Source of the DNA: Pseudomonadota bacterium
Lineage (GTDB): Bacteria > Pseudomonadota > Alphaproteobacteria > Caulobacterales > Caulobacteraceae
DNA length: 64,000 nt
Direction: 5' to 3'
Assembly: GCA_040385285.1 (NCBI GenBank)
Contig: JAZKHQ010000022.1
Span: forward strand, 18,109-82,108
The position numbers were made by a program, and so were the translations under genes. The notes beneath the pieces were generated by a model that was given only the letters and a program-made list of their open reading frames with translations, was not told the origin of the DNA and searched no databases. Below, piece after piece: positions 787 through 61,011 of this stretch (the stretch's first letter is position 1; each line of letters opens with the position of its first letter).

Positions 787-3453
<2,667 letters not shown>

Positions 3454-27013: not shown

Positions 27014-27043
27014 AACGTCCGCTTTGGGTCGATAGCGGACATT
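27014..27043 (+). repeat. Dispersed 30-bp palindrome (GTCCGCT-N10-AGCGGAC family), copy A
   Basis: AACGTCCGCTTTGGGTCGATAGCGGACATT; 29/30 identical to the reverse complement of 56837-56866. Confidence 0.9.
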
Positions 27044-55846: not shown

Positions 55847-56716
55847 TCACGCCTCGGTCGGGGCGTTCGACAGGGCCTCTTCCATCTCGGCGAAGGACGG
55901 CTGGGCGCTGGAGGGAATGTCGCCGCGCCCGATCTCGACCGAGATCTGCGCCGCATTGCCGTGCAGGTGGGCCACCAGCACCGACTGGATGATCTTGTAG
56001 AAGGCGCTCTCCTCATCGACGATCGCCTTCAGCCGCGTGGCGATCGGGCCGACCAGTCCGTAGGCCAGGAACACGCCCAGGAAGGTGCCGACCAGCGCCC
56101 CGCCGATCATCCCGCCCAGGATCTCGGGCGGCTCGGTGATCGAGCCCATGGTCTTGATGACCCCCAGCACGGCCGCGACGATGCCCAGCGCCGGCAGGGC
56201 GTCGGCCAGGTTGGTCAGGGCGTGGGGCGCCTCCAGCGCCTCGTGGTGGTGCTTCTCAAGCTGCTTTTCCATCGCGTCCTCGATCTGGTGAGGATCCTCG
56301 AGGTTCATCGTCATCATCCGCAGGGTGTCGCAGATGAAGTCGGTGGCGAAATGGTCCTTCAGCACCTTGGGGTACTTCTGGAAGATGGTGCTCTCGGCGG
56401 GCTTCTCGATGTGGCTTTCCAGAGCGATGACGCCCTTGGACTTCATCGTCTTGGTCAGCTGGAACAGCAGGCCCAGCAGGTCCTTGTAGTCCTGCTTCTT
56501 CCATTTCGGCCCGCCGAACGCCTTGCCCAGCCCGCCCAGCGTCGCCTTCATCGTGGTGACGCTGTTCGAGATCAGGAAGGCCGCCACCCCGGCGCCGCCG
56601 ATGGCCATCATCTCATGCGGCAGGGCGTGCATGATGACTTCCATCTTGCCGCCGGAGATCAGGTAGCTGCCGAACACGAGGCCGAACAGCAGGGCGATGC
56701 CGATGATCTGGAACAT
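55847..56716 (-). CDS. motA: Flagellar motor stator protein MotA
   Basis: GVIALESHIEKP, DALPALGIVAAVLG, GTFLGVFLAYG, VEIGR. Confidence 0.95.
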   Translation of the reverse strand: MFQIIGIALLFGLVFGSYLISGGKMEVIMHALPHEMMAIGGAGVAAFLISNSVTTMKATLGGLGKAFGGPKWKKQDYKDLLGLLFQLTKTMKSKGVIALESHIEKPAESTIFQKYPKVLKDHFATDFICDTLRMMTMNLEDPHQIEDAMEKQLEKHHHEALEAPHALTNLADALPALGIVAAVLGVIKTMGSITEPPEILGGMIGGALVGTFLGVFLAYGLVGPIATRLKAIVDEESAFYKIIQSVLVAHLHGNAAQISVEIGRGDIPSSAQPSFAEMEEALSNAPTEA

Positions 56717-56810
56717 GGACGGACGGGAATCCTGACGCGCGGGAGATGCGCCAGATATCGCCGTTAATCATTAAGGGCGGGTTGCGAACGGGCGGCGATG
56801 CGATACGCGC

Positions 56811-56866
56811 CAACGTCCGCCTGGAGGCTGGAGGGGAATGTCCGCTATCGACCCAAAGCGGACATT
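56811..56866 (-). repeat. Palindrome family copy B plus adjacent half-site
   Basis: AATGTCCGCT-ATCGACCCAA-AGCGGACATT (56837-56866, perfect 10-bp arms); half-site CAACGTCCGC at 56811-56820. Confidence 0.9.
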
Positions 56867-56893
56867 TGAGTCTGGGTTGGCTAACTTCGCGCA

Positions 56894-57361
56894 ATGAAGA
56901 AGGTCACTGACGAACTGACTGCGCTCCTGCCTGATCTCGCGCTCTGGAATGATGGGCGGGGCATCAGCGCAATGGACTGGCTACTCAGCGAGCCCAAGAT
57001 GGACCTGCCTGTAGCCTACAGCAGCTTGTTCTGGCCGCGTTTCGTCGCTGTCGGCCCCTACGTATTGCGGGAGGGCTTCGATCCCGACAGTCTCAAAGCA
57101 TGGGAAAAATCAGGAGAGCATAGGCGCGGCATCGAAGGTGCAATGAACGTCATCGATACGCTCGACCTGTTGGTTCCGGTGGGTGAAGCGGCGTCCAAGC
57201 TCGCCGAGCGACAGGCGGTCTACATCGGCGGCGTTCTTGCCGACATCCATCGAGTCAAGCTCGCGCAGGACTTCCCAAACAATCGTTTCACTGTCGAGTT
57301 TTGGGACGGCACGCAGGCCCAAGGGGACGATATTTCTCTATCGTTCTGGCAGAACGAATAG
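56894..57361 (+). CDS. Hypothetical protein, cassette-like; resembles orphan toxin-immunity-type proteins
   Basis: Lower GC; FWPRFV...E..N..D....FP..RF.V.F....D..SFWQ pattern; tightly flanked by palindromes. Confidence 0.7.
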   Translation: MKKVTDELTALLPDLALWNDGRGISAMDWLLSEPKMDLPVAYSSLFWPRFVAVGPYVLREGFDPDSLKAWEKSGEHRRGIEGAMNVIDTLDLLVPVGEAASKLAERQAVYIGGVLADIHRVKLAQDFPNNRFTVEFWDGTQAQGDDISLSFWQNE

Positions 57362-57390
57362 CCGCTCGGCGCAGTGCTTCTTTGCTTGCT

Positions 57391-57444
57391 AAGGTCCGCT
57401 AACCGCCGATGAGCGAGTGGCCGCTACCGACCCATAGCGGACGT
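57391..57444 (-). repeat. Palindrome family copy C plus adjacent half-site
   Basis: Half-site AAGGTCCGCT (57391-57400) and AGTGGCCGCTACCGACCCATAGCGGACGT (57416-57444); same layout as copy B. Confidence 0.85.
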
Positions 57445-57537
57445 CCGGTTCCGCCGTGGAGATGATATAGAAGGCCAATGAACCGGTGGCGGCTCCTCAC
57501 AAATGTCGTCCCGTCATTGCGGCAGGAAGGGCGAACT

Positions 57538-58314
57538 CTAGGTTTGAGCGGATCTAGGATTGATCATGACGCTATGGGTCGCGTGGCCGAACGTGCCGAC
57601 GCAATCGCCCAGCACGGTGACACATACGGTGCGCCCCCCTGCATGAGGCAGCCAATGCGATTTCAGCAGTATCCATCCTCCTTCAGGCGGTCGGACGAAG
57701 CCTACGGACAGGTCCAGCGACGGGAAGGTCCAATCCTCAAAGGACAGGTCTGCCGCGATGCCGCTCCCGAAGTCCGCTGATGCAACCGCTCGGCCGATGG
57801 CGTTCGGAAGCTGCTGATCGATCAGCGGGCTTTCCATTCGAAACCAGGCCTGGGCTGGCCCCAAATGCCCAAAGCCGCCGAGGCGGGGCAAGATGTTGAA
57901 CTGTTCGGCGAACCCGCCGGGAATAGGGCAAGGAGGACCGTCCGCCTGCGGCTGCACAGATGCGCCGTTCAGAGTTCCTGGATCTTCAGTCTGGCGAACG
58001 AGCAAGGCGGTCGCGCGAGCAAGAAGCTGATCGTCTGTCAGCAGTTCAAGCTCGATCGCTCGCGCTTGCCTGCCAGCTCGCACGACCTTTGTGCGAACCT
58101 CCAACGCAGCATCGATCGGCGTTGGGCGCAGGAAGTCGATAGTGAACCGCACGACCGACATTGGACTGTCCGACGCCTGCGCCTCAGCTATATGCGCTAG
58201 CAAGCCGGCTGGCGCACCGCCATGGCATTGGCTTGCGATCCATGGACCGCTGGCGGCGGGCGTTGCCATGAACCGGCCGGGTTGATCACAAGTAACAAAG
58301 ATCGGGCCGCTCAT
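57538..58314 (-). CDS. Thioesterase family protein (double hot-dog, TesB-like)
   Basis: GPW...CHGGAPAGLL, DFLRPTP, ADFGSG, FPSLDLSV..RPP.G.WI. Confidence 0.85.
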   Translation of the reverse strand: MSGPIFVTCDQPGRFMATPAASGPWIASQCHGGAPAGLLAHIAEAQASDSPMSVVRFTIDFLRPTPIDAALEVRTKVVRAGRQARAIELELLTDDQLLARATALLVRQTEDPGTLNGASVQPQADGPPCPIPGGFAEQFNILPRLGGFGHLGPAQAWFRMESPLIDQQLPNAIGRAVASADFGSGIAADLSFEDWTFPSLDLSVGFVRPPEGGWILLKSHWLPHAGGRTVCVTVLGDCVGTFGHATHSVMINPRSAQT

Positions 58315-58626
58315 GCACACCGCGCTTCTGAACTGGTTGAGAAGAAGTATCCTGAAGGATTCAGTCAGGTCACCGCCAGTGGGGGATTGGACACCCAACG
58401 AGGACGATGAGACATGCCATCGACCATAATCTTCCCCCTGACCGCTCCGCTGGCCTCGGGCGTAGCCATCACGATCGATGTGCTGGCGATGGCCACTCAC
58501 GCCCACAGCTGATCTTGACAATGCCCGGGCCAATATCGCCAAAGCGCAGCGGTGCACTTGTCAGCGCCGCCCAACTCTCCAACGTAAAGAGCGAATGCCG
58601 GGGACCGCCCGCCGAAGGAGAATGAC

Positions 58627-58914
58627 ATGAGAGCCTTGGTCGTCGCAGTTTTGAAAATAACAGATCCAGCGAGCTATGGTCGCTATGTTGCGGCATTCCC
58701 TGCGGTCTTTGCCCGTCACGAGGGTTCAGTCTTGGCAGCCGACCCGGCGCCAGAGCGTTTAGAAGGGGTCGCAACGGACAAGATCGTGGTGATGTCCTTC
58801 CCCGATGTCGCTGCAGCTCGGCGCTTCCTCGAAGACCCTGATTATCAGGCGATCTCTGCCGATCGCCGGCAAGGCGCTGTTGTCGATGCTTGGCTCGTGC
58901 AGGGTTACGCCTGA
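58627..58914 (+). CDS. DUF1330 domain protein
   Basis: ITDPASYGRY, LEG....VVMSFPD..AARRF..DPDYQ; GAAGGAG RBS. Confidence 0.88.
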   Translation: MRALVVAVLKITDPASYGRYVAAFPAVFARHEGSVLAADPAPERLEGVATDKIVVMSFPDVAAARRFLEDPDYQAISADRRQGAVVDAWLVQGYA

Positions 58915-59096
58915 GCTACTGCGAGCAGGCATGCCGGAGTCAGTCGGCTCGCAGTCATGGACCTCTACGACACCTCTGGCGGCGTCATGACGGCCGAGCT
59001 CGTATGCTCGATCAATGTGTACGAAGCGGGCGCTCCAACCGCAGGGATCAGCGTCAGCCTAAGTCAACCAACTTCGCCTCGCATCAACCTTGCTGC

Positions 59097-59210
59097 TGGA
59101 AGCGGACGATCTTAACGACCGCTTCGAGTCAGAAGCAGACCTTGCGCCGTCAACCGCCGTCTAGCGTCTGCTAACCTCCCATAGCGGACCTGATCAGCGT
59201 CCGCTTCGGG
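59097..59210. repeat. Cluster of palindrome-family copies (E, D) and half-sites
   Basis: AACGACCGCTTCGAGTCAGAAGCAGACCTT (59114-59143); GCGTCTGCTAACCTCCCATAGCGGACC (59164-59190); half-sites GGAAGCGGAC (about 59098) and AGCGTCCGCTT (about 59196). Confidence 0.8.
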
Positions 59211-59214
59211 CGGC

Positions 59215-61011
59215 CTAGAATCGATTCGATCCGTCCAGCACCGCGGCCAGGGCCGTCGGCGTCAGCTTCTGGTAGCCGTTCTTGCCGCCGCGCACGAACA
59301 GCTGGCCCGTCACCTTTTCGGGATCGAACCCGTCGGCGACCAGGTCGACCTTGCGGTATTTGAAGGTGCCGGTGGTGTCGGCCGCCTTGATGATCCGCAC
59401 GAACACCGGACGCGCATAGGCCGGCAGCTCAGCCTCGGCCCGCGCGGCGAAGGCGGCGGCGTCGAACTTGCCCTCGACCACCAGCGCGGCCATCCCGGCC
59501 TTGCCCTCCTGGTGCGGCACCGGCACGCCGTAGGCGATGACCTCCTTCACGCCCGGCGCATCGGCCAGCCGCTGTTCGACCTCTGCGGTCGAGACGTTCT
59601 CGCCCTTCCAGCGGAAGGTGTCGCCGATCCGGTCGACGAAGTAGAAATAGCCCTCGCGGTCCTGGCGCATCAGGTCGCCGGTGCGGAACCAGCGGTCGCC
59701 GGGCTTGAACACGTCGGTCAGGATCTTCTTCTCCGACGCCGCCTTGTCGGCATAGCCCGAGAAGTCGTGGCGGGTGTCGTCGCCGATCATGCCGATGGCC
59801 TCGCCGATCTCGCCGGTGGACGCCAGGCGGCAACGCCCGTCCGGCCCGCGCAACGGCTCGTCGTTCTCATCCAGCGGGATCAGACGGATGTTGACCTTGT
59901 TCTTGATGAACCACGGCGCGCGTCCGATCGACCCGGCCCGGCCGTCGAAGTTGAAGACCGAGACGTTGCCCTCGGTCGAGCCGTAGAACTCCAGGATGTC
60001 GGGGATGGCGAACCGGCTCTGGAACTCCTTCCATACATCGGGGCGCAGGCCGTTGCCGTATGCGAGGCGCAGCTTGTGCGCCCGCTCGTCCTCATGCGGC
60101 GGACAGTTGACCAGATACCGGCACAGCTCGCCGATATAGACGAACAGGGTGGCGCCGCTGGCCTTCACGTCGGGCCAGAAGGCGTTGGCCGAGAACCGCT
60201 TGCGGATCACCAGCCTGCCGCCGTTCAGCAGCGCCGGCCCGATGCCCACCAGCCCGCCGGTCGAGTGATAGAGCGGCAGGACGTTGAAGGTGACGTCCTT
60301 CTCGGTCGCCCGGGTCGCCCCGGCAAAGGCGCGCATATAGGTCCGCGCCCGCGAATGCGGCACCCGCGCCGCTTTCGGCAGTCCCGTGGTCCCCGAGGTG
60401 TAGATGTAGAGCGCCGTCGAGCGGTTGGTCAGACCCGTCCGCCCCGACCGCGGCGGCCGCACCGAGGATGCGCCCTGCAACGGCTTGTCCAGCCCGCGCC
60501 GGTCGCTGGTCTCGTCGGCGTCGTTGAGGCCCAGCACCCACAGCATCAGGTTCCGGCCCGTGAACTCGCGCGCCTCCTCGACCTTGCGCCAGTGATCCTC
60601 GTCGACGATCACCTGCGACGCGCCCGAGATCGACAGGCAGTGGGCCAGAGCCTGGCCGGTCAGGTTGGTGTTGATCAGGGCCGTGGCCACGCCGACCTTG
60701 GAGAAGCCCATCCACGCGGCCAGGTATTCCACCCGGTTGGCCATCACCATGGCGACCGTATCGCCGCGCTTCAGGTTGCGCCCTCGCGCCCAGTGGCCGA
60801 ACCGGTTCGCCATCCCATCGAACTCGCGGTAGGTCAGACTGCGGCGTTCGTCCTCGACGGCGACATTCTCGGCGTATTTGTCGACGGCCTCCTCAAGATC
60901 GTCGCAGACCAGCACCTCGCTATCCAGCTCGATCGGCTTGATGCGCTTCAGCAGACGGCTCAGCCCGCCCGCGAACCGCATGTCGCGCCGGATGTTCGCC
61001 ATCAAACCCAT
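59215..61011 (-). CDS. Long-chain acyl-CoA synthetase (FATP/FACL-like)
   Basis: YTSGTTGLPKAA, YIGELCRYL, EFYGSTEGN, WFRTGDL, DRIGDTFRWKGENVST. Confidence 0.93.
   Translation of the reverse strand: MGLMANIRRDMRFAGGLSRLLKRIKPIELDSEVLVCDDLEEAVDKYAENVAVEDERRSLTYREFDGMANRFGHWARGRNLKRGDTVAMVMANRVEYLAAWMGFSKVGVATALINTNLTGQALAHCLSISGASQVIVDEDHWRKVEEAREFTGRNLMLWVLGLNDADETSDRRGLDKPLQGASSVRPPRSGRTGLTNRSTALYIYTSGTTGLPKAARVPHSRARTYMRAFAGATRATEKDVTFNVLPLYHSTGGLVGIGPALLNGGRLVIRKRFSANAFWPDVKASGATLFVYIGELCRYLVNCPPHEDERAHKLRLAYGNGLRPDVWKEFQSRFAIPDILEFYGSTEGNVSVFNFDGRAGSIGRAPWFIKNKVNIRLIPLDENDEPLRGPDGRCRLASTGEIGEAIGMIGDDTRHDFSGYADKAASEKKILTDVFKPGDRWFRTGDLMRQDREGYFYFVDRIGDTFRWKGENVSTAEVEQRLADAPGVKEVIAYGVPVPHQEGKAGMAALVVEGKFDAAAFAARAEAELPAYARPVFVRIIKAADTTGTFKYRKVDLVADGFDPEKVTGQLFVRGGKNGYQKLTPTALAAVLDGSNRF

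Follow-up and report, generated by a model that had tools for sequence, protein, structure and literature searches.

The stretch of DNA analysed here, called the window in the following, comprises 64,000 nucleotides of contig JAZKHQ010000022.1 (assembly GCA_040385285.1) from a member of the Caulobacteraceae belonging to Brevundimonas (G000; 2.76 Mb in 85 contigs, 95% complete, mean GC 0.684). Between motA and a gene for an AMP-binding acyl-CoA synthetase, the window carries a block of low-GC DNA in which genes are separated by short palindromic sites. We think it somewhat better than an even chance that in this block mobile gene cassettes form a short array, which lacks a recombinase of its own, is bounded by 24-bp sites, and is operated in trans by a small tyrosine recombinase. 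The components of this proposal differ in strength: the array, like its sites, is real, and its composition of cassettes is well supported, while the assignment of the small recombinase as the catalyst, which we infer, is probable but unproven.

Comparison with 29 congeners, retrieved via motA, shows the block to be an insertion relative to 28 of them. In these 28, the spacing between motA and the synthetase gene is 71-228 bp, and no site of the family described below lies between the two genes, the conserved motif upstream of motA being present there alone; the 29th congener has another gene beside motA instead of the synthetase gene, and no family site there either. A first-pass annotation of the window, made from the sequence alone, had proposed looking for empty alleles at this locus, and the 28 alleles without the block are of that kind. 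It had also reported a drop in GC to about 60% between the two genes, which agrees with our measurement of 0.58-0.63 over approximately 56.7-59.2 kb, compared with 0.69-0.78 in the flanks. The features of the locus are:

55847-56716, minus strand: motA, left neighbour of the block
56790..56796, unstranded: left 7-bp direct repeat GGGCGGC at the insertion junction, read from sequence
56797..59214, unstranded: inserted block of 2,418 bp, not in congeners, GC 0.58-0.63
59208..59214, unstranded: right 7-bp direct repeat GGGCGGC, directly before the synthetase stop codon (59215-59217), read from sequence
59215-61011, minus strand: AMP-binding acyl-CoA synthetase gene, right neighbour of the block

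Where the genome under study has the GGGCGGC pair, the congener alleles show a single variable GC-rich 8-9-mer. The pair may mark a crossover segment common to both partners or a duplicated target, but as evidence it is weak and may be due to chance. The right junction, GTCCGCTTC-GGGCGG-CCTAG, resembles a hybrid site made of a family left arm, a centre like that of the head sites described below, and host DNA, which is suggestive only. The insertion begins just past a motif in the region upstream of motA (CGCCGTTAATSMTTAAGG, 56762-56789, with the palindromic core TTAATSATTAA) and leaves it intact; the motif is kept in most of the 28 aligned congener alleles and presumably serves as a flagellar promoter or as the site of a regulator.

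Five matches to GTCCGCT-N10-AGCGGAC were found in the window (56840 and 27017 without mismatch, 57419 and 59166 with one, 59117 with two), whereas shuffled windows gave a mean of 0.74 and never five. The four palindromes that the first-pass annotation had placed in the block are all where it had located them, though its view of them as a single type does not hold, since three different centres are present. We distinguish them as T-type, S-type and head (H-type) sites, each core forming a unit with one accessory half-site:

56815..56863, minus strand: T-type unit A, core 56840-56863 GTCCGCTTT-GGGTCG-ATAGCGGAC, accessory GCGGAC half-site 56815-56820
57394..57442, minus strand: T-type unit B, core 57419-57442 GTCCGCTAT-GGGTCG-GTAGCGGCC, accessory half-site 57394-57400, orientation as A
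59101..59140, plus strand: S-type unit C, accessory AGCGGAC 59101-59107, 9-nt gap, core 59117-59140 GACCGCTTC-GAGTCA-GAAGCAGAC
59166..59207, minus strand: H-type unit D, core 59166-59189 GTCCGCTAT-GGGAGG-TTAGCAGAC, 9-nt gap, accessory GAAGCGGAC 59199-59207
27017..27040, plus strand: solo perfect T-type site, approximately 30 kb from the array, near an adhesin gene cluster

Units B and C had been described as sharing orientation and layout; instead, B matches A, both having a GTCCGC half-site 18-19 nt from the core, and C and D mirror each other, with an AGCGGAC/GTCCGCT half-site exactly 9 nt off. Unit D adjoins the synthetase stop codon and has the layout of array heads, and of the site after the recombinase stop codon, in other loci, while S-type units like C lie on the upstream side of congener recombinase genes. 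On the minus strand, the array of the window thus runs from the synthetase stop through the H site (59166), the inverted S site (59117), a cassette with a DUF1330 and a thioesterase gene, a T site (57419), a cassette encoding a protein of 155 amino acids (aa) and a second T site (56840) to the motA promoter.

The anatomy of the sites was derived from an alignment of all copies in the genome, and the arm statistics from 67 T sites of the genome and congener loci. What had been described as a 10-nt loop resolves to 2+6+2 nt: two 9-bp inverted arms (GTCCGCTWT / WWAGCGGAC) flank an asymmetric 6-bp centre, giving a core of 24 bp (9-6-9), the layout that is standard for core sites of simple tyrosine recombinases, among them loxP, dif and FRT. 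The centre is GGGTCG in T sites (A, B and 27017), GGG[G/T/C/A]GG in H sites (D) and GAGTCA in S sites (C), so that the loop is asymmetric, as the first-pass annotation had claimed for a directional site, and is not of one conserved type. The accessory arm motif lies 15-19 nt past the right arm in T units and exactly 9 nt ahead of the left arm in H and S units. Among the 67 T sites the left arm, GTCCGC(T/A)WT, is almost invariant and the right arm, RRAGCSGAC, is looser; at arm position 4 the pairs are C:G in 37, C:C in 17 and C:A in 8 sites, the right arm varying without compensation, and a perfect 7-bp stem is present in only 30%. Given that the arms are conserved in sequence and their mismatches are uncompensated, they point to protein-binding sites on duplex DNA and not to a hairpin selected for its structure. 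The palindromes are thus probably double-stranded recombination sites, and the analogy to hairpins processed as single strands, which had been drawn at first, finds no support in these arms.

The same sites recur throughout the genome. A tolerant scan returned 28, compared with one for a reversed-pattern control; 23 of the 28 have a neighbour within 3 kb, and 20 fall in 1-kb windows below the fifth GC percentile. Arrays are located on contigs C19, C14, C7, C11, C74 and C22, the one on C19 (9.9-12 kb) consisting of four T sites and one H site, all co-oriented, with four open reading frames (ORFs) of 119-161 aa between them at 58-61% GC. It had been suggested at the outset that the copies might border low-GC ORFs, and the genome copies do form clustered, co-oriented, low-GC arrays. 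Over all the DNA compared, adjacent sites have the same orientation in 68 cases against 3 (T-T pairs 44 against 1), the median gap between sites is 469 bp, and an interval usually holds one small ORF on either strand. The arrays are polar, with one H unit at the end and T units after it (C19; loci L053-L056 of congener G005; locus L051 of congener G023). T sites are present in the genomes of 89 of 150 congener species, with 301 sites in total and two control matches.

Evidence that individual cassettes change places comes from G023, a complete congener genome, in which locus L051 carries next to each other two cassettes that are found apart elsewhere in the same genome. L050 5603-6324 is 98.1% identical to L051 5785-6506, and L049 10518-11035 is 98.3% identical to L051 6497-7014, with unrelated flanks in both comparisons. 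Identity begins and ends at the 6-bp centre of the site: the left arm varies with the upstream neighbour, and the centre, right arm and accessory motif travel with the downstream cassette, exactly the pattern that exchange inside the 6-bp centre predicts. The proposal of the first-pass annotation that the palindromes are recombination or insertion sites bounding single-gene cassettes is accordingly upheld by the insertion, the co-oriented arrays, the shared cassettes and the recurrence of the 155-aa gene elsewhere (see below), but the cassettes are not strictly single-gene.

A profile search detected no tyrosine recombinase gene (PF00589) on the window's contig, consistent with the initial observation of no recombinase nearby. 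An enzyme encoded elsewhere had been anticipated, and a candidate flanked by sites is present on contig C14:

G000:C14:25860-26498, strand not given: small tyrosine recombinase gene, 212-aa PF00589 protein (7e-18)

The gene lies exactly between two inverted H units, from which T sites reach outward on both sides in mirror orientation. Being enclosed by inverted sites, it could flip or move as a cassette; recombination between the two H units would invert it. Of the enzyme classes that had been named as possible partners of the motif (RAYT/HUH, tyrosine recombinase or IS110), it is therefore a tyrosine recombinase that is found between inverted sites, the gene in that position being neither RAYT/HUH nor IS110. 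The module (G000:C14:25782-26552; L002 5783-6553) is situated in an island with genes for DNA polymerase B, a resolvase and a large serine recombinase. The same flanking units surround a homologue on a 3.2-Mb metagenome contig. Across approximately 20 congener and other Caulobacterales loci read in the orientation of the recombinase gene, an H site follows 32-46 nt past the stop codon in seven, the other downstream sites are nearly all in plus orientation (one exception), and those upstream are all in minus orientation. In G023 one recombinase copy is followed by seven co-oriented T sites.

Homologues of about 208 aa gave more than 8,000 matches, of which the best 120 share 75-84% identity; others occur in beta- and gammaproteobacteria (57-65% identity) and on 413 plasmids, where they are annotated merely as "tyrosine-type recombinase/integrase". 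Residues R63, K91, H160, R163, H186 and Y195 are invariant across the alpha-, beta- and gammaproteobacterial homologues. Matches of the 212-aa protein to NCBIfam are to Xer-type models only and far under their cut-offs, no NCBIfam equivalog claims it, and no match to an IntI-specific model (TIGR02249-type) was obtained. Its AlphaFold2 (AF2) model, with a predicted local distance difference test (pLDDT) score of 78, resembles the catalytic domain of XerH, of XerA, of Tn1549 Int and of Cre, with VchIntIA ranking only 47th by fold. The matches cover only about 45% of the target proteins, and residues 1-24 are disordered, so that the modelled protein lacks a core-binding domain and is a catalytic domain only. 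In beta- and gammaproteobacterial loci (L083-L138), a GC-rich stem-loop after the recombinase stop codon is followed by a motif such as CGGCCAGAAGCGGYC, an indication that the head unit differs between lineages; nonetheless, a core of the GTCCGCTAT-GGGTCG type is retained in Pseudomonas nitroreducens (L132).

We propose that this catalytic-domain-only recombinase (208-212 aa) would bind the arms and exchange strands inside the 6-bp centre. DNA between a co-oriented pair of T sites would be set free, presumably as a circle with one rebuilt site, and this circle could re-enter at a head site or at another T site; the enzyme encoded on C14 would reach the window array in trans. Several observations weigh against this scenario. 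The empty congener alleles hold no site, which leaves the arrival of the head unit unexplained, and tyrosine recombinases usually need identical centres, while those of the H, T and S sites differ. The cassette ORFs face both ways, so that no common promoter logic is evident. For the window array itself, neither an excised circle nor an empty T-T joint nor a polymorphism affecting one cassette was seen, and the other assemblies with the recombinase contig are 100% identical to C14 and thus uninformative on strain-level variation. Among congeners, T sites are present in 75% of those encoding a full-length recombinase, compared with 56% of those lacking one, a difference that is not significant (Fisher p = 0.09), and in G005, which has 14 sites, the recombinase was not detected.

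The recombinase is found in 46 of 150 congeners (28 full length). With T sites more common than the recombinase, arrays without an enzyme must be common, as are the attC site clusters that have no integron integrase (CALINs) among integrons. Draft assemblies probably also lose copies of the gene, because many homologues sit on contigs of about 1 kb. Many copies in congeners G013, G019, G051, G105 and G133 are broken up into neighbouring pieces or interrupted by stop codons, so that decay of the gene is frequent while the sites persist. A unit of S type is present on C29 of the genome under study (about 60074-60172; L006 3075-3173), together with approximately 90 nt that are 87% identical to the recombinase leader in G023 (L052 4391-4483). 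It directly follows the gene for a 442-aa phage-type integrase, with no small recombinase gene after it, and may be the remnant of a recombinase module.

The persistence of sites without the gene also fits an alternative in which the sites are genuine but served by a different enzyme, either the host XerC/XerD pair or larger island integrases, the small recombinase being cargo or a local invertase. We regard this as unlikely, although more than half of the congeners without the small recombinase carry T sites, six other PF00589 proteins (two of them Xer-like) are encoded in the genome, and the islands that hold the arrays on C7, C29 and C14 also encode other integrases or serine recombinases. 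Against it stands the precise nesting of the small recombinase within the sites, with fixed polarity and in many genomes, whereas no other gene recurs next to the arrays examined; in addition, the arms, 9-mers rich in GC, appear unlike those of dif, which are AT-rich and 11 bp long, and the arrays are co-oriented whereas pdif modules alternate. It is rather less likely that the window array is a frozen relic, whose sites once mediated insertion and of which C and D have degenerated, the enzyme being distant or silent. The two mismatches in core C, the one in core D and the atypical centre GGGAGG of the latter would agree with this, as would the broken recombinase genes in many congeners and the lack of variation among the other assemblies with contig C14, but units A and B are near-perfect and co-oriented, and the genome's own recombinase ORF is intact with all catalytic residues. 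The relic scenario is compatible with our explanation of the site family as a whole.

Two further explanations dispense with recombination of duplex DNA and appear improbable. The sites could be selfish palindromes akin to repetitive extragenic palindromes (REPs) or their paired form (REPINs), copied as single-stranded hairpins by an HUH enzyme (a REP-associated tyrosine transposase, RAYT) or an IS200/IS110-type enzyme, and piling up in acquired DNA. Short GC-rich intergenic palindromes would look like this, as would a single gene between inverted copies, an arrangement known for RAYT genes, and empty inverted pairs resembling REPIN doublets (G000 C7 237084-237202). However, the gene between the inverted copies encodes a tyrosine recombinase and not an HUH enzyme, no Y1 transposase (Y1_Tnp) was found among 64 array ORFs (a whole-genome search for RAYT, PF01797, or IS110 was not made), and the copies number only 28 and are clustered, not dispersed, mostly in the DNA of lowest GC (20 in the lowest 5% of windows). 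The absence of compensatory changes, the scarcity of perfect stems, and the break in cassette identity at the site centre speak against hairpin copying as well, and we give this explanation a very low probability. The lowest of all goes to a role at the RNA level, in which terminators, stabilisers of mRNA 3' ends or regulatory hairpins were carried along with foreign genes, so that their border position would mark the ends of transcription units. Several copies do lie 2-30 nt past stop codons, for example in the C19 array, and perfect copies would form stable 9-bp stems, yet no T tract follows the sites, none of the four window sites was called terminator-like in a consensus scan, and an Rfam search of 56-60 kb returned nothing meaningful. 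Moreover, orientation tracks the array and not the adjacent gene, with ORFs facing both ways, conservation is of sequence and not of pairing, and the accessory half-site and the link to the recombinase have no explanation in RNA.

The genes carried in the window array are the following:

56894-57361, plus strand: ORF for a 155-aa protein, cassette gene, no family
57538..58315, minus strand: acyl-CoA thioesterase-like gene (4HBT_3 + 4HBT_3C; Pfam 1e-15, 1e-12)
58627..58914, plus strand: DUF1330 gene, 95 aa (Pfam 1.1e-26), divergent from the thioesterase gene

The 155-aa ORF has no match in Pfam, NCBIfam or PADLOC, and its AF2 model (pLDDT 81) has no fold match in the PDB; an earlier guess that it is an immunity protein gains neither support nor contradiction. 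The protein is rare: 5.8 billion protein clusters yielded 17 homologues. Of those at 69-70% identity, one is located in a five-cassette array beside an H head (L158) and another between T sites in an integrase-bearing island (L162); a third is a solo insert among housekeeping-type genes, with the two cassette-side arms alone kept (L157). The 27 nt that had been counted ahead of its ATG are correct, and the distance after its stop, given previously as 29 nt, holds approximately, being about 32 nt up to the next half-site. The second interval had likewise been taken for a single-gene cassette, but it contains two divergent genes, those for the thioesterase and the DUF1330 protein. The thioesterase ORF remains open to 58557; as the Pfam domains begin only at residue 104 of this long ORF, the ATG at 58315 is the likely start.

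Most of the 64 array ORFs are without a Pfam family. Those with one include thioesterase, DUF1330, DUF4279, GNAT, HAD, MerR, PAS kinase, response regulator, SIMPL and Barstar proteins and a fragment of an insertion sequence (IS). A reading of the arrays as defence islands was rejected, since there were merely two weak PADLOC matches among the 64 cassette ORFs and the cargo in the genus is mixed. In predicted viral contigs of IMG/VR with 57-68% GC, five loci (L167, L170, L171, L174 and L175) hold co-oriented arrays of 3-4 T sites, and no small recombinase was found in the stretches retrieved for these loci. Inverted pairs of H units of about 120 bp that enclose no gene were observed in the genome under study (C7 237084-237202; L003 8085-8203) and in G023 (L050 approximately 3130-3250). 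Such empty pairs resemble a miniature inverted-repeat transposable element (MITE), a REPIN doublet, or a recombinase module minus its gene.

The textbook example of a device that captures and shuffles single genes is the integron, and the arrays described here resemble integrons and CALINs in several respects. A recombinase gene is followed by an adjacent head site and by co-oriented sites (the layout of the integron platform, with the H site 32-46 nt past the stop codon and T sites in plus orientation after it), each site closing off a small cassette, mostly of one gene, whose function is unknown or accessory; many arrays are without a recombinase, and cassettes are shared with breakpoints inside the site. 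Nevertheless, the system is not an integron, as neither IntI nor attC is present. The recombinase of 208-212 aa, a predicted catalytic domain only, matches no IntI model, and the sites are 24-bp sequence-conserved cores with an accessory motif, as opposed to the structure-conserved attC hairpins of 57-141 nt (R''-L''...L'-R'). The ORFs point in either direction, and the recombinase gene, which is enclosed by inverted sites, reads towards the array and can be flanked by arrays on both sides. The first-pass judgement that the elements fit neither the attC consensus nor a transposon is in line with the difference of the cores from attC and the lack of an IntI-specific match.

Likenesses to other systems are partial. 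Acinetobacter pdif modules, which depend on XerC/XerD, are also gene modules bounded by short double-stranded sites with a 6-bp centre and without the enzyme beside them. In contrast to the arrays described here, with a ratio of 68:3 for co-orientation, GC-rich 9-mer arms and a dedicated recombinase nested in the sites, pdif sites alternate and are served by the host Xer pair; the 9-6-9 geometry with GC-rich GTCCGCTWT arms likewise appears to differ from the 11-6-11 of dif-like XerC/XerD binding sites. Cre/loxP, XerH/difH and XerA/dif share with our sites the inverted arms and the asymmetric crossover region of 6-8 bp that sets direction, and XerH, XerA and Cre are the closest fold matches of the recombinase. 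However, those enzymes clamp DNA with an N-terminal core-binding domain, which the small recombinase lacks in its model, and they resolve dimers or plasmids and carry no cassette arrays.

A core of two inverted motifs with adjacent accessory motifs in direct repeat, resembling the units described here, is found in the IRS of TnpI of Tn4430, and FimB and FimE are tyrosine recombinases of about 200 aa without a conventional N-terminal domain that act on inverted repeats. By analogy, FimB/FimE-like action might occur at the inverted H units that enclose the small recombinase. Unlike the recombinase of the cassette arrays, which has no family match beyond PF00589, these enzymes act in cointegrate resolution or promoter inversion, and their sites do not bound mobile cassettes. 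REP/REPIN-RAYT systems share the short palindromes, the gene between inverted copies and the empty inverted doublets, and differ in having an HUH enzyme, whereas the family described here has a tyrosine recombinase, low copy number, clustering in foreign DNA and no structural covariation. No published description of this recombinase-site cassette system was found in the literature on integron-like systems and small tyrosine recombinases, and the recombinase, although widespread, is apparently unstudied.

Beyond the window, we consider it about as probable as its opposite that the sites and the recombinase constitute a Proteobacteria-wide system of gene capture, analogous to integrons but independent of them, which combines a catalytic-domain-only recombinase with lox-like double-stranded sites, stockpiles cassettes and exchanges them among chromosomes, plasmids and prophages, and fills the role of integrons in the Alphaproteobacteria. 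All 243 alphaproteobacterial genomes examined by Cury et al. (2016; PMC4889954) were without integrons, In0 elements or CALINs, an absence termed "extremely puzzling" by these authors. The system appears common in Brevundimonas, with T sites in 89 of 150 congener species, and to extend to beta- and gammaproteobacteria, to plasmids and to viral contigs. If the proposal is correct, it would raise the mechanistic question of how DNA is clamped and synapsed by a tyrosine recombinase that has no core-binding domain, and so compact an enzyme, of about 200 aa and using 24-bp sites, would be a possible tool for genome engineering. The sites would also be a new marker by which to find cargo genes whose function is unknown, and the existence of a second cassette system, unrelated to integrons, would change how the flux of accessory genes in these groups of bacteria is read.

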